Below, piece by piece: positions 13,665-50,645 of a DNA stretch of 64,000 nucleotides (position 1 is the first letter of the stretch; every line of letters starts with the position of its first letter). Below the pieces are notes generated by a model. It saw only the letters and a list, made by a program, of their open reading frames with translations. It ran no database searches and was not told the origin of the DNA. Made by a program: the position numbers and the translations under genes. Source of the DNA: a virus; the IMG/VR virus record IMGVR_UViG_3300035180_002703, positions 10,465-74,464 of that record; one strand, 5' to 3'.

Positions 13665-14984
13665 ATGGCATGGACCGAACGGTACATCACGGCTTCTGCG
13701 CCGGGCGGGGGCGACGGGAGTCAAGGTAATCCGTGGACGCTCGCCGAGGGGTTGACGAACCTCGCCGCGGGCATGCGCCTCAACCTGCTTGTGGGCACGT
13801 ATACGAGGACGGCGGGGATCAACGTCACCGTAGGCGGGCCGCTCGCGATCCAGGGGTATTCGGTAACGCCGGGCGACGGCGGGCGAGCGACGATTGCATT
13901 AGGGAACACGAACGATGGCGGCCTGACGTTCAATGCCGGTTACCAGCAGGCTCGCGACCTTATCCTCACGAGCACCTATGCCGGGGGCAATCAGCTCTAT
14001 GCAGTATCTATGAACGGCACCGGTTGCACTTGCGAACGGGTTATCGCCTCCGGATGGTCTGGCAAAGCGTTCTTCCTGAATGGCAGTGAGGTAAAAACGA
14101 TCCACTGCGAGGCCTATAACTGCTGCACGAATGGGAGTTCCGGCCAAGGCGCGTTCACGATCAACTACGACGGCGGCTGCTCGATCATAAGTTGCATTGC
14201 TCACGATATCAACCCGGCGAACGCAAACTCCCACGGGTTCCTGCTGACGGAGGATAACCAGGGCGCAACGATCGTAGATTGCATTGCGGACACATGCGGC
14301 GGCTACGGGTTCTATATCAATCGCCAGCGAGTAAACCGCATAATCATCAACTGCGACGCGTACAACTGCGCGCTCGGCGGGTTCTATTGCAACGTCGCGT
14401 CGTATACGCCGGTTACCTACCTCAAGAACTGCAACGCGATCAGCAACGGCGGCTATGGCTACGCCTCGGCGCAGGCAGGGAACAAGCTGATCCTGGTGAA
14501 CTGCTTCGATTACGGGAACACATCTGGTCGATTGTACGATACCGGCGGGTGTTCGGACGAGTCGCCGAACAGTCACTATACGGCTGTCCCATATGTCGAT
14601 GGGCCGAATGGGAACTTCGCGCTCGACCGAGTGAACGGCGCGGCTGGGCGCGGGGCGTCTGCCCGATTCCTTCAGACACTCGGCTACACGGCGTCGATCC
14701 CGGCCTCGCGCGACATCGGAGCGGCCCAGCACGCGGACCCTGTACTCGGTCTGCCTGCTGCAGGGTCGCTTTACGCCGGGAAGACCGTCACGGTAGACGG
14801 CACGGCGGCGGTGACTGGCACCCTTCGCGCGTCCAACATCTCGAACCCCGACGCCGCGAACGGGGGCGAGGACCTTTCCGCTCCGATCCTCGGCTCGGGG
14901 CATACCGTTGACGGGATTGCGGGCAGTCTATCCGGCGGAAGCAGCGGCGGCATGGGCGGCATATTCGAAACGATCGTGAGGTAG
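13665..14984 (+). CDS. right-handed beta-helix protein (tailspike/depolymerase-like)
   Basis: GDGSQGNPW start and repeated (I/L)xNCxAxNxxxxGF units. Confidence 0.75.
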   Translation: MAWTERYITASAPGGGDGSQGNPWTLAEGLTNLAAGMRLNLLVGTYTRTAGINVTVGGPLAIQGYSVTPGDGGRATIALGNTNDGGLTFNAGYQQARDLILTSTYAGGNQLYAVSMNGTGCTCERVIASGWSGKAFFLNGSEVKTIHCEAYNCCTNGSSGQGAFTINYDGGCSIISCIAHDINPANANSHGFLLTEDNQGATIVDCIADTCGGYGFYINRQRVNRIIINCDAYNCALGGFYCNVASYTPVTYLKNCNAISNGGYGYASAQAGNKLILVNCFDYGNTSGRLYDTGGCSDESPNSHYTAVPYVDGPNGNFALDRVNGAAGRGASARFLQTLGYTASIPASRDIGAAQHADPVLGLPAAGSLYAGKTVTVDGTAAVTGTLRASNISNPDAANGGEDLSAPILGSGHTVDGIAGSLSGGSSGGMGGIFETIVR

Positions 14985-21323: not shown

Positions 21324-21358
21324 AACGATAAGCCGCCACCGTTCGCGGGGCGCACGTT
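21324..21358 (+). ncRNA. structured leader motif copy 1
   Basis: AACG AUAAGC CGCC A CCG(UUCG)CGG GGCG CA CGUU. Confidence 0.8.
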
Positions 21359-21372
21359 ATGGGGAGAGGGGT

Positions 21373-22170
21373 GTGGAGAAAGAGTACACGCAACAGTTGC
21401 TGGATCGCGCAGTGTGGAAACACCAGCGGTGGATGCGAGAGAAACGCTACGCGGCGCAGCGGCTCAATCTGTCAGACATTCAGCTGAACGGTCTCGATTT
21501 GTCGGGCCTTGACCTAAGCTACGCCATCTGCGTCAACACGACTTTCAACAAGTGCAACCTGAAGGGCGTGAACCTGATGTTGGGTGTTGCGGCGCAGGCC
21601 CGATTCCTGGAATCGAATCTGCGAGGGGCTGATCTCTCCCATTCTATGCTGTCGGAGGCCACCTTCTGGGCGAGCATCCTGTCGGAGTCCGACTTTGGCA
21701 GCGCGAATTGCTCGGGTGCATGTTTTGACGAAGTACTGCTTACCGGGGCGAGATTCAACAAGACCATCCTGTATGACGCAGTGTTCCGAAACGCTCACAA
21801 CGTGCCGGAATCCGCTCGGGCGTTCTCCCGCATCACTCCCGAAACCGGATCGTTCGAGATGTGGAAGAAATGCGACGGAGACGTGCTGGTGAGGCTTCTG
21901 GTTCCTGCGGATGCCCATCGGGAGAACGGGTGTTCGCGTCTACTGCGGGTCTCGAAAGCCGTTGTGCTGGAGATATTGGGGCCACACGGCGAAACGACGG
22001 TCAGAAACATGTCCGATCCAGATGTCGAGTACAAGGTCGGGGATGTTGTTACTCCGCGAGAAGGCTTCAACCCAGATTGGGAGAACGAGTATTCGGGAGG
22101 AATCCACGGATATCTGTCTCGCGCAGAGGCCGCATCACCAGGTATTTACAAGATCGATGTTGACGAATGA
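21373..22170 (+). CDS. pentapeptide repeat protein with DUF5758-like C-terminus
   Basis: A(D/N)LxX repeats, then WKKC...VRLLVPADA.R. Confidence 0.9.
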   Translation: MEKEYTQQLLDRAVWKHQRWMREKRYAAQRLNLSDIQLNGLDLSGLDLSYAICVNTTFNKCNLKGVNLMLGVAAQARFLESNLRGADLSHSMLSEATFWASILSESDFGSANCSGACFDEVLLTGARFNKTILYDAVFRNAHNVPESARAFSRITPETGSFEMWKKCDGDVLVRLLVPADAHRENGCSRLLRVSKAVVLEILGPHGETTVRNMSDPDVEYKVGDVVTPREGFNPDWENEYSGGIHGYLSRAEAASPGIYKIDVDE

Positions 22171-23934: not shown

Positions 23935-24615
23935 ATGACGAATAAGATGTCGCAGGAGAAGCTGGATCGGATTCTGGATGCACACGAGGCATGGCTGGGG
24001 AGGAAACCTGGAGGCAGAAGGGCTAGGCTGTGCGGAAAGAACATGTCGGGGCTGAACTTCGCGGGCCGTACGCTGAGGCACATCATCTTGGCAGACGCCG
24101 AACTGCACGGTGCGAACCTGTCCGGGGCCGATCTCGACGCAGCGAATCTCAGTTGCGCGAACATGTGGAGGGTAAATGCAGAGCGAGCAACTTTCCGAGA
24201 GACGGACCTTTCTTGCGCCGATCTCTCAGGTGCGAGGCTGTTCGACGCCGATCTCGATACAGCGAATCTCAGTCACGCGAAGATGTGGGGTGCGAATGCG
24301 GAGCGGGCGGCTTTCCGAGAAGCGAACCTTTCTTGCGCCGATCTGCGGAAAGCGAACCTAGAAGGATCGGTGTTTACCCAGGCTAATCTGTCTGGAGCTC
24401 GCCTATCAGGTGCGCATATCGACGGCGCTAAGTGGACGGACGCCGTCATGGCGATTGCGGATGTTCGCGATGTGGCTCCGACCGAGGAATTCCTGGATGC
24501 TTTTTACGATTGGAAGATATGTGTAGACAGTGCATATACAACTTGCTGCCAGCGTTACGCAGTGGCGGTAGCCACCCAAACGAATGGCGCTGACGAAACG
24601 GAGGGGGAACAATGA
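23935..24615 (+). CDS. pentapeptide repeat protein
   Basis: ANLSGADL repeats. Confidence 0.9.
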   Translation: MTNKMSQEKLDRILDAHEAWLGRKPGGRRARLCGKNMSGLNFAGRTLRHIILADAELHGANLSGADLDAANLSCANMWRVNAERATFRETDLSCADLSGARLFDADLDTANLSHAKMWGANAERAAFREANLSCADLRKANLEGSVFTQANLSGARLSGAHIDGAKWTDAVMAIADVRDVAPTEEFLDAFYDWKICVDSAYTTCCQRYAVAVATQTNGADETEGEQ

Positions 24616-26466: not shown

Positions 26467-26495
26467 TTGACAAGCCGACTATCGTATGATATAAT
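26467..26495 (+). promoter_or_regulatory. sigma70 promoter
   Basis: TTGACA-17-TATAAT, extended TG. Confidence 0.9.
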
Positions 26496-26509: not shown

Positions 26510-26540
26510 GCCGATAAGCCGCCAACAAGAGGCGCACGGC
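26510..26540 (+). ncRNA. structured leader motif copy 4
   Basis: GCCG AUAAGC CGCC AACAAGA GGCG CA CGGC. Confidence 0.8.
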
Positions 26541-26555: not shown

Positions 26556-26864
26556 ATGAACAGCACCGAGGCTCCTATGACGCTCACCGCGCTGGCCGCC
26601 GATCAGGAGTGGAACCTGGTGGAGTCGCTCAAGGGCATCGCTGACGGGCAGCGTGTTCCAGAGACCATCGACACTCTGGTTCGTCTCGCCGAGGAGTATC
26701 AGAAGTCCGCTCGCGATAAGCTGGCCGAATCGGAAAGGCTGAAGAAGTATCCTGTATCGGCGCACTTCCTCGCTCACGAGAAGGAATGCGACGCGCTGGA
26801 TGACGCTCGGGTTGCCAAGGCGTACAACGACATGGTGGATAGGCTCACGAAGTACCTGCACTGA
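26556..26864 (+). CDS. hypothetical protein
   Basis: SD AAGGAG; LKGIA.GQ...ET..TL shared with 26974. Confidence 0.7.
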   Translation: MNSTEAPMTLTALAADQEWNLVESLKGIADGQRVPETIDTLVRLAEEYQKSARDKLAESERLKKYPVSAHFLAHEKECDALDDARVAKAYNDMVDRLTKYLH

Positions 26865-26865
26865 C

Positions 26866-26930
26866 TGCCGAAACCGGCTTTCGGGCCGGTCTGCACCGGG
26901 CGGCTCCCGGCGCACTGAAGAGGCAAGCCG
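26866..26930 (+). ncRNA. type II hammerhead ribozyme
   Basis: UGCC GAAA-stem III(UUCG)-GUC-stem I-CUGAAGA GGCA; loop I CGGCU complementary to 3' AGCCG. Confidence 0.92.
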
Positions 26931-26959
26931 ATAAGTCGCCACCTTAGGGGGCGCAACGG
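26927..26959 (+). ncRNA. structured leader motif copy 5
   Basis: CCG AUAAGU CGCC A..GGCG CAA CGG. Confidence 0.8.
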
Positions 26960-26973
26960 AGGGGAGGGGAGAA

Positions 26974-27378
26974 ATGGATGACGTTGGTAGTGGTGGCTCC
27001 GTCTGGAGCGAAACCGTCTGGAAGATGCCGATGACGCTGGAGCTCCTGGAAAGACAGGCGATCGGTGCGGAAAGCGCGGCGCAGGAACACTCCGAGATTG
27101 CCAAGAGGGCTACCAGCCGGGCGGAAGCGAAGAAGGCGCGAGAGGAAGCAGATTACCTGTACGAGCTGGCCGACGAATACCGAGGGCTCGCACGTGATCT
27201 GAAGGGGATCGCGGAAGGACAGACGCTGGAAGAAACGGTGAAGACACTGCGCAGTCTATCGCGAAGGAAGACAGGTATCCAACGACACAGGCAGTTGAGC
27301 GACTATGAGGAGATGGCAGATATTCTGTCATTCTACCTGCGAGGATATACGGGAGAGGAGGATCACAATGAACAGTGA
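26974..27378 (+). CDS. hypothetical protein
   Basis: SD, helical. Confidence 0.7.
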   Translation: MDDVGSGGSVWSETVWKMPMTLELLERQAIGAESAAQEHSEIAKRATSRAEAKKAREEADYLYELADEYRGLARDLKGIAEGQTLEETVKTLRSLSRRKTGIQRHRQLSDYEEMADILSFYLRGYTGEEDHNEQ

Positions 27379-31898: not shown

Positions 31899-32291
31899 AT
31901 GGTTGGTTCCCGTCGGATGAAGTACGGCAATAACCGGGTTCGGGTGGATGGGCAGTTGTTCGACTCTGTCGGAGAGTACGAGCATTGGAAGCATTTGCGG
32001 GAACGGGAGGCTGCCGGGGAGATCAGTGATCTGAAGCGACAGATGGCATTCGAGCTTGCTCCGTCACTTGTCCTCTGGGGTCGCAAGAAACCTGCATTGC
32101 GATACATCGCCGATTACGTGTACATGGAGAACGGCGAGCGTGTTGTCGCTGACTACAAGGGCGGGCCGCTGACGCCATTGTTTCGCGCGAAGGCGCATCT
32201 GCTGAAGGCGGTGCATGGCATCGATATCCTCATTGTGCGTGGTCGGGCCGATCGTCGCGGGAGGGGCGGAAATGAAGCGAATAACGCTTGA
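31899..32291 (+). CDS. DUF1064-family endonuclease
   Basis: KYGN..V.VDG..FDS..E...Y.ADY.Y...DYKG. Confidence 0.85.
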   Translation: MVGSRRMKYGNNRVRVDGQLFDSVGEYEHWKHLREREAAGEISDLKRQMAFELAPSLVLWGRKKPALRYIADYVYMENGERVVADYKGGPLTPLFRAKAHLLKAVHGIDILIVRGRADRRGRGGNEANNA

Positions 32292-33663
32292 TCTGAATGA
32301 TCTGGTTGTGCAGGGAAACATTCGGCGTTTGACGTTTGCCGAACGGGGCGCGTTCGACATATTATTGGAGCAGTATATCACGCGCGGAGGCTCGCTGCCG
32401 TTGGACGTGGACGAATGTTGCGATTTGGCCTCGGCGCGAACTGAGGAGGATCGGGCGGTAGTGAAGTCGACGCTGTCGGCGGCGTTTCGTGCGACCGATG
32501 ATGGTTGGCGCAGCACCTGGGCCGATGGTCTCGCGGAGCGTGTCGGTCGGCGTTCGGACACCTATCGGGAGAATGCCGTGGCGCGTTGGTCGAAGTCGCG
32601 GAATGGCGTTGATATCGCTGATAATGCATGCAATAGCATCGGCGAAAATGCAATTGCAATGCAATTGCATCCGGAGAAATGCAATTGCATCGGCTCGAAC
32701 GGGATCGGACCGAAAATCGCATCTGATAGTGCTGATAATGGCGTTGATATCGCTGATAACTCATGCAATTGCATCGAATCACATGCAATTGGAATGCAAT
32801 TGCATCAGGCGGAATGCAATTGCAATGCAATAGCATCGGCGGGAATGCAATTGCATCAGGCGGAATGCAATTGCAATGCAATAGCATCAGATTGCATGAA
32901 TTCGCATGGAATCGCGTCGAAAAGCGTCCAAGATGGCGATGATGACGCTGTTTCTGACGTTCCCCCCCCTTATAACCCCCCTATATACAAAGACTCTATA
33001 CTAATACAAAGAGTCTTTGACTCTAAGAGACTCTCTACCTCTGAAGACTCTATATCTAACAAAGAGTCTTGTAAGACTCTAAAAGACTATAAAGACGAAG
33101 AGAGTCTTGGCGTTGAGAAGAGAGATTGTACGAATTACCACTCTTGCGCAAATCGCGTCGATTTTGCGCTTTTCGATGTCGAAAACGACGTTGAAGCACA
33201 GGGCGATGGCGTTGCGCAACCTGACGTCGCGAACAACGCCACGACGCTGGACCCGGGGCACGGTGGTAGTAGTCGCTCGAAAGGATGGACCGCGGAGGAA
33301 GTGAAGGAGAAACAGTTGCGTGGCTTCAACAGGTTCTGGGAACTTCAACCCCGAAAGGTCGATAAGGCTCGGTGCTGGGCATGGTGGCAGCGCAACGTTC
33401 GCGAACGCGGCATCGCTCCGGCTATCATCAACGGCTTCAAGGCATATCTCGCCACGTGCAATCCGGAGGATAACTTCAAGTACGCGAAGCGACCCATAAC
33501 CTGGCTCCGTGGTAGGTGCTGGGAGGACGAAGGGCTCGATCCTTCTGCTCTGGAGGCTGTTCTACCTGCTCGCGAACCCATCCGCGATCTCGGATTCGAG
33601 TATAGTGCAGAGAATCTCGAACGAACGCTCGGAATCTCGCTTCCACGCGCGAAAAGCGGCTAA
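32272..33663 (+). CDS. phage replication initiator (YdaU/DUF1376-like N-terminus)
   Basis: ERGAFDILLEQY, central repeats, FNRFWELQPRKVDK...TWLRGRCWED; upstream of DnaB. Confidence 0.8.
   Translation: MKRITLDLNDLVVQGNIRRLTFAERGAFDILLEQYITRGGSLPLDVDECCDLASARTEEDRAVVKSTLSAAFRATDDGWRSTWADGLAERVGRRSDTYRENAVARWSKSRNGVDIADNACNSIGENAIAMQLHPEKCNCIGSNGIGPKIASDSADNGVDIADNSCNCIESHAIGMQLHQAECNCNAIASAGMQLHQAECNCNAIASDCMNSHGIASKSVQDGDDDAVSDVPPPYNPPIYKDSILIQRVFDSKRLSTSEDSISNKESCKTLKDYKDEESLGVEKRDCTNYHSCANRVDFALFDVENDVEAQGDGVAQPDVANNATTLDPGHGGSSRSKGWTAEEVKEKQLRGFNRFWELQPRKVDKARCWAWWQRNVRERGIAPAIINGFKAYLATCNPEDNFKYAKRPITWLRGRCWEDEGLDPSALEAVLPAREPIRDLGFEYSAENLERTLGISLPRAKSG
32600..33110. repeat. iteron-like repeats, probable replication origin
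   Basis: Many TGCAATTGCA palindromes (32646-32880), then AT-rich AAGACTCT/AGAGTCTT repeats (32989-33108). Confidence 0.65.
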
Positions 33664-36247: not shown

Positions 36248-36250
36248 AAA

Positions 36251-36313
36251 GCCGAAACCGGTCTTCGGGCCGGTCTATGCAGGACGGCTACCTGCATACT
36301 GAAGAGGCAAGCT
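36251..36313 (+). ncRNA. type II hammerhead ribozyme
   Basis: GCC GAAA-CCGGUC(UUCG)GGCCGG-UC-UAUGCAGG(loop)CCUGCAUA-CUGAAGA GGC. Confidence 0.92.
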
Positions 36314-36314
36314 T

Positions 36315-36347
36315 CTGCATAAGTCGGCACCTTCGGGGCCGCGGCAG
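36315..36347 (+). ncRNA. structured leader motif copy 6
   Basis: CUGC AUAAGU CGGC A CC(UUCG)GG GCCG CG GCAG. Confidence 0.8.
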
Positions 36348-36360
36348 GTTGGAGGTAGAT

Positions 36361-36669
36361 ATGACGTCGCAGGAGGAGTCTCGGGTGCGCCGTGTTCTGT
36401 CGGATTTATACTATGCTAGCAGTGAGGGGGAAGGACTGGCGAAGCAGTGGGAAGAGTGGGCACATGAGGCCGAAACTAATCAGAACAAGTGGATATCTGC
36501 TGAAGCGAAGGCGAAGAAGGCAGAATACTGCAGGAAGATTGCGGGGGTTCATGCTATGACTGCGATGCATTTGGGCGGTATTGCGGATGCTATTGCGGGT
36601 GCTATCAACGCTGGTGCGCTTGACGCGCTGGAAGACATATTCGGCGCGGTTTACGGGGTTCGGGATTAG
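36361..36669 (+). CDS. hypothetical protein
   Basis: SD GGAGG. Confidence 0.65.
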   Translation: MTSQEESRVRRVLSDLYYASSEGEGLAKQWEEWAHEAETNQNKWISAEAKAKKAEYCRKIAGVHAMTAMHLGGIADAIAGAINAGALDALEDIFGAVYGVRD

Positions 36670-42825: not shown

Positions 42826-42838
42826 CAGGAGGAATGAC

Positions 42839-43018
42839 ATGGCCGGTTTCGTTGTCTGCTACATGCCGTCGGCGCAGTCGGCAGGTTCGGCGGAGCAGGT
42901 TCGGCGCGTGCAGGTTCGCGCGCAGGATACCCGGGCGCAGGACCGGGCGCGGGCGGTGCAGCGGGCGCAGGCGCGGCGTGCGAAGCTCTTCGAGCGGGCC
43001 GCCGAGTCTGTCGAGTAG
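42839..43018 (+). CDS. 59-aa Arg/Ala/Gln-rich peptide
   Basis: SD GGAGGA 5 nt before ATG 42839; absent from the ORF track. Confidence 0.5.
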   Translation: MAGFVVCYMPSAQSAGSAEQVRRVQVRAQDTRAQDRARAVQRAQARRAKLFERAAESVE

Positions 43019-43019
43019 T

Positions 43020-46000
43020 TCGGCAGGGCGGGAGGTTTCGACGGCGCAGGGGCTTGCCGTCGAAGATCGGGCGGGGCGCGCGAACGCTCCGCCCATTCTT
43101 TCGCGTGTCGTACATAGGCGGGCGCGTGTCGCAGGTACCTGCGGGCGGTTCCGTGCGTCTCCGGGCATCCTGGAGCGGTTGCGGGGCGTTCTAGCGGGCG
43201 CGTTCGCGTGCAGTCTGCAGGATAGGCGGCGCAGGTACCCGGCGGGCGCAGGTACCCGGCGGGCGCAGGTACCCGGCGGCGCAGTCTGTCGGAGATCCGG
43301 CGGGCGCAGGTACCCGGGCGGCGCTTACCCGGCGGCACTACCCGGCGGCACTACCCGGCGGGCGCAGGTTTCGGCGGGTTCCGTACCCGGGCGGCGCTTA
43401 CCTGTTCGCGTATCCGTTCACTACCTGCGGGCGTCGCTTCTACCCGTACCCGTTCTGCTACCCGTTCCGTACCCGTGCGGCGCGTGTCCGTCCATCCTGG
43501 AGCGAAAGCGGCGCATTCTGGCAGGTACCCGGCGGCACTACCCGGGCGCAGGTACCCGGCGGCGTACCCGTTCACTACCTGCGGGCAGGTACCCGGGCGG
43601 CTACCCGGCGGCTACCCGTTCCGTACCTGCGGGCGGAGCTTCTACCCGGGCGGAGCTTCTACCCGGGCGGGCAGGTACCCGGTGGACGCGTTCGCGCGCG
43701 TTCTACCCGTCGACCGGCTACCCGTTCGCGTGCAGGATACCCGGGCGGCGCTTACCCGGCCCATAGGCGGCGCTTACCCGGGCGGGCCCATAGGCGGGCG
43801 GCTACCTGCTACCTGCTACCCGGGCGGAGCTTCTACCCGTTGCCATTCGGCGGCGCTTCTACCCGGCCCATAGGCGGCCCATAGGCGGCGCTTACCTGCT
43901 ACCCGGGCGGCTACCTGCTCTGCTACCCGGCCCATAGGCGGCAGGTACCCGGGCGGCAGGTACCCGGGCGGCTTGCCGTACCACGGCGGGCGGGTCCATA
44001 GGCGGGCGGGTTCCGCAGGTTCCGTACCCGGCGGCGCTTGCCGTACCCGTTGCCGTACCTGCTACCCGGGCGGCAGGATAGGCGGGCGGGCCCATAGGCG
44101 GGCGGGTTCGGCGGCGTACCTGCTACCTGCTACCTGCTACCCGTTGCCGTACCCGGCGGCGCTTGCCGTACCTGCTACCCGGGCGGCGCTTCTACCTGTT
44201 CGCTCGTACCTGCTACCCGTACCCGTGCGGCAGGTTCCGTGCTCGTGCAGGTACCCGGGCGGCGCTTACTGCTACCCGTTGCCGTACCCGGCGGCGTGTT
44301 CGGCTCGTGCTACCCGTACCCGTTACCCGTGCAGGTTCGGCGGCAGGTACCTGCTCTGCTACCCGGCTTCTACCCGGCTTCGGCTTCGGCGCGCGGCTTC
44401 ACCTTCTACCCGGCTTCATGGCGCTTACCTGCTACCCGTACCCGTGCAGTCTTCTGCTACCCGGCTTCTGCTCGTGCAGGTTCGGCAGGTTCGCGATACC
44501 CGGCGGCTTCTACCCGTCGACCGTCTACCTGCTACGGCGTCTTTGCCGTACCTGCTCTGCTACCCGTACCCGGTGCGGCGGCTTCGTACCCGTGCAGGTT
44601 CGCGCGCGGCTTCTACTCGGCGGCTTTCGGCGGCTTCTACCCGTCGACCGTCTACCTGTTCGGCGGATTTGCCGTACCCGTACCCGTACCCGTACCCGTA
44701 CCCGTGCAGGTTCGGCGGCGGCTTCTACCCGGCTTCACCTTCTACCCGGCTTCTGCTACCCGGCTTCGTACCCGTGCGGCTTCGCGGTATCCTGCGGCTT
44801 CTACCCGGCTTCTTCTCGGCTTTGGACGGCTTCGCGGCGGCTTCTACGGAGCTTACCTGCTACCTGCTTCGCGGCGGCTTCACCTTCGCGGCTTCTCGGA
44901 GGATACGGCGGCTTTCTGCTACCCGGTGCGGCTTTCTGCTACCCGGCTTCACCTTCTCGGCTTCACCTTCTCGGCTTTCTGCTACCCGTGCGGCTTCGGC
45001 TTCACCTTCTCGGCGGCTTCTACCCGGCTTCTCGGAGGATACGGCGCTTACCCGTTACCCGTGCAGGTTCGGCGGCTTCGGCGGTCTTCGGCTTCTACCC
45101 GGCTTCTGCTACCCGTGCGGCTTCGCGGGTTCGGCTTCGGCGGCTTCTGCTACCTGCTTCGCGGCGGCTTCTACCTGCTACGCGGCTTCGCGGCTTCTGC
45201 TACCCGGCTTCTACCTGCTACCCGGCTTCTACCTGCTACGCGGCTTCTACGGCGCTTCTACGGCTTCGGCGGCGCTTACCTGCTACCCGTACCCGGTGGA
45301 CGCCTTCGCCTTCTCGGCGGCTTCTACGCGGCTTCTACTGCTACCCGTGCGGCTTCGCCTTCGGCTTCGGCGGCGGCTTCTGCTACCTGCTACCTGCTCT
45401 GCTACCCGGCTTCGGAGTGATACCCGGCTTCGGAGTGTTTCGGAGGATACGGCGCTTACCTGCTACGCGGCGGCTTCGCGGGTTCGGCTTCTTCGCCTAC
45501 TCGGCGGCTTCGTACCCGTGCGGCTTCTACCTGCTACCCGGCTTCTCGGCTTTCGGCGGCTTCCATGGCGCTTACCTGCTACCTGCTACCTGCTACCTGC
45601 TATCTGCTACCTGCTACCTGCTATCTGCTACCTGCTACCTGCTACCTGCTACCTGCTATCTGCTACCTGCTACCTGCTACCTGCTACCCGGCTTCTTCTC
45701 GGCTTCTCGGCGGCTTCGGAGTGTTTCGGAGTGCTACCCGGCTTCGGCGGCTTCGGTCGCAGGTATGGGCGCAAGCATGGGCGCAGGTATGGGCGCGGCT
45801 TCTGCTACCTGCTACCCGGCGGCTTTGGACGGCTTCGCTTGTGCTACCCGTACCCGATACCTGCGCCATACCCGGCGGCTTCGCGGCTTTGGACGGCTTC
45901 GGAGTGTTTCGGAGGATATGGCGGCTTCGCGGCTTCTGCTACCCGGCTTCTACCCGGCTTCTATGCGGCGGCTTCTGCTACCTGCTACCCGGTTTCTATG

Positions 46001-46090
46001 CGGGTTCGGGTTCGGGTTCGGCTTCTACCCGGCTTCTGCTACTCGGCGGATTCGGAGTGTTTCGGAGTGTTTCGGAGGATTATCGGCAGG
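43020..46090. repeat. ~3 kb low-complexity mosaic of short words
   Basis: Built from CTACCCGG, CGGCTTC, TACCTGC, GCAGGT, TACCCG; tandem TACCTGC run at ~45573-45688. Confidence 0.9.
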
Positions 46091-46116
46091 TTCGCGCGAA
46101 TTTTCGCATACGAGGC

Positions 46117-46146
46117 TTGACAGTTTCGCGGGTTATTATCTATAAC
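46117..46146 (+). promoter_or_regulatory. probable sigma70 promoter
   Basis: TTGACA-18-TATAAC. Confidence 0.55.
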
Positions 46147-46246
46147 ACGGCGAATCTGCTGGTACGCCGTGTCCGTGCGCCGTAGCTTATCGGCGCGTAT
46201 GATATAGGCGGAAGGTCGTACTACTTGCGGTCTTCCGCCATTCTTT
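46145..46246 (+). ncRNA. candidate small RNA complementary to the leader motif
   Basis: Three consecutive inverted repeats, the last terminator-like; middle segment CCGUGCGCC-GUA-GCUUAUCGGC. Confidence 0.55.
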
Positions 46247-49779: not shown

Positions 49780-49889
49780 AAAGGCGCGATCGTGTATCGT
49801 GGGAGGGGACCGGGTTGGAGATACGGCGGTCTTGGACGAACATGGCGGCCAGTTATTGTGTTGAGAACGTAGATAAGGAGGGGGGAGCT

Positions 49890-50645
49890 ATGCCTGGAGT
49901 ATTTGTGCCAGAAGGCATTGATGAAGTTCTGAGGTCCCATAAGAGGTGGTTGAGCGGTAGAGGTGGAGGGGAGCGAGCCAACCTGTCTGGGGTCGATTTG
50001 TCGCACATCAGGTTTGGGGATGTGAAGCTGAAGGACGCTAACCTGGCAGAGGCCAACCTTGATGAAGCGTGGTTGGTTGGTGCTGATCTGTGTGGTGCCA
50101 ACCTTTCCGGTGCGAGCATGAAGTGTACGACGTTGAGCAACGCGTCACTTCGCGGGGCTAATCTGACGAACTCGGATTTGTTTGACGCGGACCTGAGGTC
50201 TGCCGATCTAACCGGGGCGAATCTGTCCGGCGCGATGTTGAGCCGGACGCAACTGAAGAATGCTATATGCGATAATGTGATTGCTGCTGGGATGTCGCTT
50301 GTTTACGTCAAGGGAGCGCCCGAATCGTTGCGCGCATGGTCGTCCATCGTGCCAGAGACTGGCTCATTCGAGCTGTGGAAGCGATGCCGCGATGGTGTGA
50401 TAGTAAGGCTGTTGGTCCCAGAGGATGCGAAGCGAACGAACGCGGCAAGACGTGCTGTGCGGGTATCCAAGGCTATTGTTCTGGAAGTAATTGGTGCCGA
50501 TGAAGCTCGCAGCTTGTATTCGAATGATGTTGTCTATCGCGTTGGTGAAACGGTCGAGCCGGAGGACGAATACGAGGACGATTGGACAATGAGCTGTGCG
50601 TCGGGCATCTACGGGTACTTGACACGGCTAGAGGCAGAAGCGTAG
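49890..50645 (+). CDS. pentapeptide repeat protein with DUF5758-like C-terminus
   Basis: ANLSGA repeats; WKRC...VRLLVPEDAKR. Confidence 0.9.
   Translation: MPGVFVPEGIDEVLRSHKRWLSGRGGGERANLSGVDLSHIRFGDVKLKDANLAEANLDEAWLVGADLCGANLSGASMKCTTLSNASLRGANLTNSDLFDADLRSADLTGANLSGAMLSRTQLKNAICDNVIAAGMSLVYVKGAPESLRAWSSIVPETGSFELWKRCRDGVIVRLLVPEDAKRTNAARRAVRVSKAIVLEVIGADEARSLYSNDVVYRVGETVEPEDEYEDDWTMSCASGIYGYLTRLEAEA

Follow-up and report, generated by a model that had tools for sequence, protein, structure and literature searches.

Among the type II hammerhead ribozymes of bacteria and (pro)phages, copies between phage genes were recognised as early as 2011 (Perreault et al. 2011, PMC3088659). Hammerheads flank phage genes, where processing of polycistronic RNA has been proposed (PMC3088659), and type II hammerheads near phage-like genes cleave in vivo in Desulfovibrio vulgaris (PMC8782182); the biological role of bacterial and phage hammerheads has been called largely elusive (PMC6765202). 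In the engineered element RiboJ, the sTRSV hammerhead and a 23-nt hairpin precede the ribosome binding site (PMC6206723); the construct raises mRNA and protein levels, its cleavage stripping off the upstream context and leaving a structured 5' end (PMC6206723). In haloviruses HF1/HF2, a variant hammerhead precedes the start codon of a helicase gene by 13 nt, and the mapped transcript 5' end falls within 3 nt of the cleavage site (PMC3088659).

The hammerhead considered here (HH1) lies at 26866-26930 of the window, the whole 64,000-nt stretch that was analysed, which comes from a 74.5-kb uncultivated-phage record (IMG/VR; CheckV 67%), is present in sediment and microbial-mat samples, and encodes a sliding clamp, DnaB, terminase, portal and a DarB-like protein. 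With the described RF02276 type II hammerheads it shares the core, the topology, the pseudoknot between loop I and the 3' tail and the intercistronic phage site (PMC3088659, PMC8782182), as well as the proposed role of cutting polycistronic RNA (PMC3088659). It differs from them in that the window and six related contigs place a covarying 33-nt leader between ribozyme and Shine-Dalgarno sequence (SD), a leader that is also used behind promoters and whose orthologous units exchange promoter for ribozyme. The order of ribozyme, hairpin leader and ribosome binding site is that of RiboJ, the closest functional analogue of the HH1 module, by analogy of function and not by shared descent: HH1 is natural and of type II, whereas RiboJ is synthetic and built on the type III sTRSV ribozyme, and the downstream element of the window clade has a RUAAGN internal loop and a bulged A. 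The HF1/HF2 variant resembles HH1 in being viral and in standing before an early gene, but belongs to an archaeal virus, has a variant core, precedes the first ORF of its transcript instead of lying between cistrons, and has no shared leader. We favour, with moderate confidence, the reading that HH1 is an active, probably constitutive type II hammerhead between two cistrons of an early operon, serving as a natural insulator and 5'-end generator before a separate leader. The operon and the parts of HH1 are as follows.

26467..26495, + strand: sigma-70 promoter TTGACA-17-TATAAT, 12/12 consensus, driving the operon that holds HH1
26510..26540, + strand: leader copy 4, promoter-proximal, before the first cistron (39.7 bits with leader model R1)
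26556..26864, + strand: first cistron, 102 aa, stop codon TGA at 26862-64; weak paralog of the downstream cistron
26866..26930, + strand: type II hammerhead HH1, from Rfam match and manual reading of the core
26866-69 / 26922-25: stem II of HH1, UGCC / GGCA
26870-73: GAAA of the core
26873-26890: stem III, 6 bp plus a possible U-G
26889-91: cleavage triplet GUC, predicted cut after C17 (C26891)
26892-26914: stem I, 8 of 9 pairs formed, one A.C mismatch
26901-05 / 26926-30: pseudoknot, loop I CGGCU with tail AGCCG, 5 bp
26915-21: CUGAAGA of the core
26961..27378, + strand: SD GGAGG (26963-67) and second cistron (26974-27378, 134 aa)

No terminator-like site was predicted between the promoter and HH1. 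The small flanking ORFs, including both cistrons, matched no family in Pfam or PHROGs; likewise, 20 kb of sequence had no megablast match among GenBank phages, a DnaB-based search for related loci retrieved no relatives, and a scan of genome contigs, with 0 matches, gave no host clue. Elsewhere in the window, at least 5 copies of an ATGCAAT-rich repeat with units of about 20-31 nt, including the palindrome TGCAATTGCA, occupy 32600-32910 inside an ORF (32215-33663) that matches replication-initiation and primosomal PHROGs, and look like origin iterons within the initiator gene. Additionally, short GC-rich words (CTACCTG, CCCGTA, GGCTTC) form a strand-asymmetric array of 3 kb over 43200-46120, where GC reaches 0.685 and AT skew falls to -0.48. 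The array lies in or around two long ORFs (42834-43766 and 43973-46120), neither of which has a PHROG match.

The identity of HH1 as a ribozyme is well supported. In a cmscan search, 26866-26933 matched Hammerhead_II (RF02276) over the full model (1-66) at 38.7 bits (E 2.5e-4 for the window), which passes the Rfam gathering score of 37 bits by 1.7 bits; none of 14 control genomes scored above the same cut-off with the Rfam model, and no other Rfam family matched in the window at E<=1. The conserved core (CUGANGA, GAAA, NUH triplet) is present as CUGAAGA, GAAA and GUC, the core-adjacent pairs U26892-A26914, C26869-G26922 and A26873-U26890 are canonical, stems I and III are loop-closed and stem II is open in the cmscan alignment, as in type II topology, and the pseudoknot of loop I with the tail 3' of stem II counts 5 bp against a minimum of 4. 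Minimum-free-energy (MFE) folding of 26866-26976 and 26892-26976 did not separate this GC-rich RNA from shuffles (z about 0.7; 0.74). The match confirms 26866-26930 as a complete type II hammerhead and a genuine member of a known ribozyme family. The initial annotation had already placed the core, stem II, cleavage site and pseudoknot partner, and on re-reading the sequence every coordinate proved correct; the cmscan with Rfam Hammerhead_II that it proposed gave the above-threshold, full-model match, and its description of the ribozyme as fused to a leader copy also holds, with model R1 scoring 26924-26962 at 41.1 bits (E 2.5e-10).

A paralogous hammerhead (HH2) with its own leader stands further downstream in the window.

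36250..36313, + strand: paralogous type II hammerhead HH2, predicted cleavage after C36275 (31.0 bits)
36315..36347, + strand: leader copy 6 (35.9 bits), starting 1 nt past the HH2 pseudoknot tail without overlap and followed by ORF 36361-36669

The Rfam match of HH2 spans 36250-36316 and, at 31.0 bits, falls below the cut-off of 37. Core and stem II are identical to those of HH1, stem I is completely rewritten yet paired, and the pseudoknot has 4 bp (GGCU/AGCU). The relatives, six contigs (G001 to G006) that with the window make up the seven contigs referred to below, came from IMG/VR pattern scans, of which the first, for the leader, gave 14 matches, 9 of them due to chance, and that for a hammerhead 3' part plus leader gave 40, about 34 of them due to chance. 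Each relative carries one or two Hammerhead_II matches of 42-54.5 bits, and the set includes a single further match at 32 bits. In all 10 ribozyme-leader modules the hammerhead begins 0-3 nt past a stop codon. In an alignment of 10 distinct hammerheads from the seven contigs (11 hammerheads in total), 93.8% of cells are paired, and 0 of 500 shuffles match the alignment score. Of the 9 pairs of stem I, 5 show compensatory changes; the pseudoknot is paired throughout (100%) and includes a C-G/U-A swap, loop GGUU going with tail AACC and loop GGCU with tail AGCC. This covariation in stem I and pseudoknot indicates that the ribozyme fold, pseudoknot included, is under selection.

Two of the related hammerheads depart from this picture in their own ways. 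The one at G002:427-495 (also L010:427-495, - strand; 32.1 bits) is followed by an intrinsic-terminator-like hairpin with a T run and then by a TTGACA-17-TATAGT promoter and a leader, so that the ribozyme closes a transcription unit at its 3' end instead of preceding a cistron. The other, G003:24412-24472 (also L011:8077-8137, + strand), scores 43.6 bits despite the core CCGAUGA (U4 to C) and may cleave slowly or not at all; in G006 the orthologous hammerhead keeps the usual CUGAUGA.

A wider scan of IMG/VR for hammerheads with the same stem III (CCGG...CCGG) added 50 distinct type II hammerheads, spread over 46 other phage loci (L071-L116). The stop codon of the preceding gene ends 0-10 nt upstream (mostly 0-3 nt) or overlaps the 5' strand of stem II in 48 of them, so that the ribozyme should be unable to fold while a ribosome terminates there, and vice versa, and an SD and start codon follow 21-39 nt downstream in 43. 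The succession of stop codon, ribozyme and SD is thus generic for phage type II hammerheads. No leader was found among the 50. The window clade inserts its standard leader between ribozyme and SD, which places the start codon 50 nt downstream.

This leader was counted by a descriptor scan together with a covariance model (R1) built from 23 copies. The window contains 13 copies and the seven contigs together 33, with three to five in each relative. The window copies, with UAAG starting at 21329, 23893, 25664, 26515, 26932, 36320, 36692, 38532, 39615, 40685, 41145, 42310 and 42792, all lie on the + strand, 0-10 nt before an SD and start codon; within the seven contigs all 33 share one strand and precede an SD-ATG. 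The structure reads P1 - RUAAGN - P2 - bulged A - P3 - P2' - CR - P1', with 94.3% paired cells, two-sided changes in 6 of 10 pairs, and an alignment score reached by 0 of 500 shuffles; these values come from alignment A3 with an explicit structure, MAFFT/RNAalifold on 11 window leaders having misaligned the 3' arms. A search of Rfam returned no family matching the leader. Copy 5, the one behind HH1, conforms to the leader of the clade, with a P1 of only 3 bp and an extra A on the 3' side.

26927..26960, + strand: leader copy 5 (41.1 bits with R1), its P1 5' strand overlapping the HH1 pseudoknot tail
26928-30 / 26957-59: P1 of copy 5, CCG / CGG, 3 bp
26931-36: internal loop AUAAGU
26937-40 / 26950-53: P2
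26941: bulged A
26942-43 / 26948-49: P3

Readings of the RUAAGN loop as a K-turn, UAA/GAN or 11-nt receptor were rejected as unsupported: the opposite strand has only 2 nt (CR). A further element of the window, at 46117-46246, consists of a TTGACA-18-TATAAC promoter-like site, the stretch CCGTGCGCC-GTA-GCTTATCGGC (46172-46194, + strand) and a terminator-like hairpin; in reverse complement, the stretch matches the 3' arm and the 5' arm of leader copy 4, so it is a possible antisense RNA to the leaders. A regular-expression search of the six relatives with a very permissive pattern gave no clear counterpart. Three pentapeptide-repeat proteins are encoded in the window (21373-22170, 23935-24615 and 49815-50645; PF00805 confirmed for 23935-24615), and two of the three genes follow leader copies 1 and 2.

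The leader occurs in three settings. Among the 33 copies of the seven contigs, 16 stand behind sigma-70 promoters, 10 behind hammerheads and 7 behind neither; in the window the corresponding numbers are 7, 2 and 4. The 7 promoter-borne window copies lie 12-23 nt past the -10 hexamer of strong sigma-70 promoters, 5 of which show 12/12 consensus. Conversely, 10 of the 11 hammerheads have a leader 1-9 nt past stem II (the exception is G002:427-495), a count to be read with the caveat that the modules may share descent, so that repeated adjacency does not amount to independent events, and that nearly every gene of the relatives' small early block has a leader, so that adjacency could partly reflect regional co-occurrence. 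Across the seven contigs, three orthologous gene families swap promoter for hammerhead.

225-aa family: behind a promoter in the window (39615), behind a hammerhead in G004 and G006, behind neither in G001, G003 and G005
126-aa family: behind a promoter in G004, behind a hammerhead in G003, behind neither in the window (41145; 134-aa homolog)
95-aa family: behind a promoter in G003, behind a hammerhead in G006, none found without one or the other

Furthermore, a promoter or hammerhead lies just upstream of 8 of 12 leader genes against 5 of 78 others (Fisher p 6.6e-6), a comparison that rests on approximate gene calls and covers the window contig only. Both this enrichment and the exchange of promoter and hammerhead between orthologs support the view that the ribozyme takes the place of a promoter, which would fit cleavage supplying a 5' end there. 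The earlier proposal that cleavage gives an internal cistron a new 5' end near the leader gains from the swaps and the enrichment; its further statement that this end is placed as in the promoter-proximal copies does not quite hold, the predicted cut lying 35-44 nt before P1 (35 in HH1) and the predicted transcription starts only 6-17 nt before it. Moreover, a leader does not require a 5' end close by, since 7 of the 33, a fifth, have neither kind of 5'-end generator in front of them. Altogether, we read the leader as a separate 5'-UTR module, specific to the phage clade of the window and its six relatives and mostly located near RNA 5' ends.

In front of the leaders that lack both promoter and hammerhead, no other ribozyme class was detected with Rfam (E<=0.5-1). 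In the region G001:14927-14975, a GC-rich hairpin (GCCCGCC-N8-GGCGGGC) without a T run precedes the leader with UAAG at 14918, and similar GC-rich hairpins precede promoter- and ribozyme-less leaders at equivalent sites in G003 and G005. Such hairpins might serve in processing or protection and thereby mark an RNA end in a third manner, beside promoter and ribozyme. Copy 2 of the window starts 5 nt past a stop codon, with no promoter or ribozyme there. A metagenome contig of 1214 nt (L120) joins the end of a G002/G004-like gene and a hammerhead to this very leader, and the pentapeptide-repeat gene of L120, 92% identical to the window gene behind copy 2, thereby stands in a unit behind a hammerhead. 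The contig is a mosaic, G002/G004-like at nt 1-123, window-like (92%) at 105-837 and G003-like (89%) at 829-1214, and its joint between the G002/G004-like and window-like parts lies inside the leader P1/UAAG; conserved intergenic RNA motifs may act as recombination joints between gene modules.

In HH1 the ribozyme and the leader not only adjoin but overlap. The pseudoknot tail (26926-30) and P1 (26928-30) have three paired nucleotides in common, and G26927 has no partner in P1, for a total overlap of 3-4 nt. The initial annotation had AGCCG (26926-30) doubling as the 5' outer stem of leader copy 5; the nucleotides paired in P1 are CCG (26928-30). In HH2 tail and P1 are 1 nt apart; among the relatives they overlap by 1 nt in two modules (G003b, G006b), abut in two (G001, G005) and lie 4-5 nt apart in four (G002, G003a, G004, G006a), so that the 3-nt overlap occurs in 1 of 10 modules and the others overlap by 1 nt or are separated by 0-5 nt. 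Estimated stabilities are -6.6 kcal/mol for the HH1 pseudoknot duplex and -2.3 for the 3-bp P1. Transcription reaches the pseudoknot tail 27 nt ahead of P1', and the predicted cut would leave both pseudoknot strands together on the 3' product. Because the pseudoknot is transcribed first, is stronger and is kept on the 3' product, any interference would run from ribozyme to leader and not the reverse. We read the HH1 overlap as local compaction and not as a conserved switch.

Under the favoured reading, transcription from the promoter at 26467-26495 would run through cistron 1, whereupon HH1 would fold and cut the nascent RNA after C26891. This would leave cistron 1 with a message that stops at the stem III hairpin and carries a 2',3'-cyclic phosphate. 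The message of cistron 2 would start from a 5'-OH on U26892, the first nucleotide of stem I, its 5' end closed by the stem I hairpin and the pseudoknot and located 35 nt before the leader, which directly precedes the SD. We infer that cleavage takes place in vivo and that the cut would separate the stability and translation of the two cistrons. The hammerhead would be one of three interchangeable leader contexts (promoter, ribozyme, nothing), and it is this interchangeability that suggests that HH1 acts in nature as RiboJ does by design, insulating an internal cistron and providing its 5' end.

Other explanations of the same arrangement differ in what they leave unexplained. The ribozyme might mainly serve the upstream message, trimming its 3' end past the stop codon and leaving a protective stem III hairpin, with the nearness of the leader due to tight gene packing; this agrees with the stop codon that adjoins the hammerhead in every window-clade module and in 48 of the 50 cases from other phages, and with G002:427-495, where terminator and fresh promoter follow the ribozyme. 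We consider it unlikely as the main role, given that it does not account for the replacement of promoter by hammerhead before orthologous leader-gene units, although upstream and downstream roles are not exclusive. A regulated switch, in which pseudoknot and P1 would be mutually exclusive and a factor or sRNA at the leader would tune cleavage, or cleavage would control leader folding, could draw on the nucleotides shared by the HH1 tail AGCCG (26926-30) and P1 CCG (26928-30), and on the complementarity of 46172-46194 (+ strand) to both leader arms. Such a switch is distinctly improbable: the overlap is not conserved (a 1-nt gap in HH2, 1 nt of overlap in two modules, 0-5 nt of separation in six), the pseudoknot at -6.6 kcal/mol outweighs P1 at -2.3 and has a 27-nt lead in transcription, the retention of both its strands on the 3' product means that P1 would not be released by the cut, and 50 hammerheads of the same build exist in other phages without the leader. 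Neither a conserved alternative fold nor a ligand domain gating the active fold, as a glmS-like or allosteric switch would need, was found in the comparison of the 10 modules or with Rfam at E<=1. The earlier suggestion of competing folds, with binding at the leader tuning cleavage, is for these reasons not upheld, the 3-nt overlap being confined to HH1 and the pseudoknot being both stronger and made earlier.

That hammerhead and leader are conserved intergenic linkers, offering short homology for module recombination with little regulatory role, would account for the switch of L120 from G002/G004-like to window-like sequence inside the leader P1/UAAG and for the breakpoints of the ortholog context swaps, which likewise fall at P1; stem I, the pseudoknot, P1 and P2 all carry compensatory changes, however, which point to selection on RNA structure and not only on DNA identity and make this account very unlikely. 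Least plausible of all is a chance match or decayed, non-cleaving relic: the margin of 1.7 bits above the cut-off, the A.C mismatch in stem I and the MFE folding no better than shuffles (z 0.74) can be cited for it, but the complete core, the canonical core-adjacent pairs, the rewritten but paired stem I of HH2 and the 42-54.5 bits of the orthologs in relatives leave it hardly any room. A more speculative extension of the favoured reading, in our view doubtful, is that the leader works only near an RNA 5' end, for instance as a loading site for a factor of phage or host or as a 5' stabiliser, that the ribozyme is the promoter-free end maker inside operons, and that the nucleotides shared by pseudoknot and P1 in HH1 would impose sequential folding of ribozyme and leader, a built-in timer.

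HH1 itself is of a kind known since 2011, while the ribozyme-leader cassette and its interchange with promoters appear modestly new. The same leader-gene units standing behind a promoter, a hammerhead or neither constitute a natural comparison for hammerhead function, and the main value of the finding may lie there, in that the idea of an insulated 5' end would be directly testable in the window clade through a few reporter constructs.
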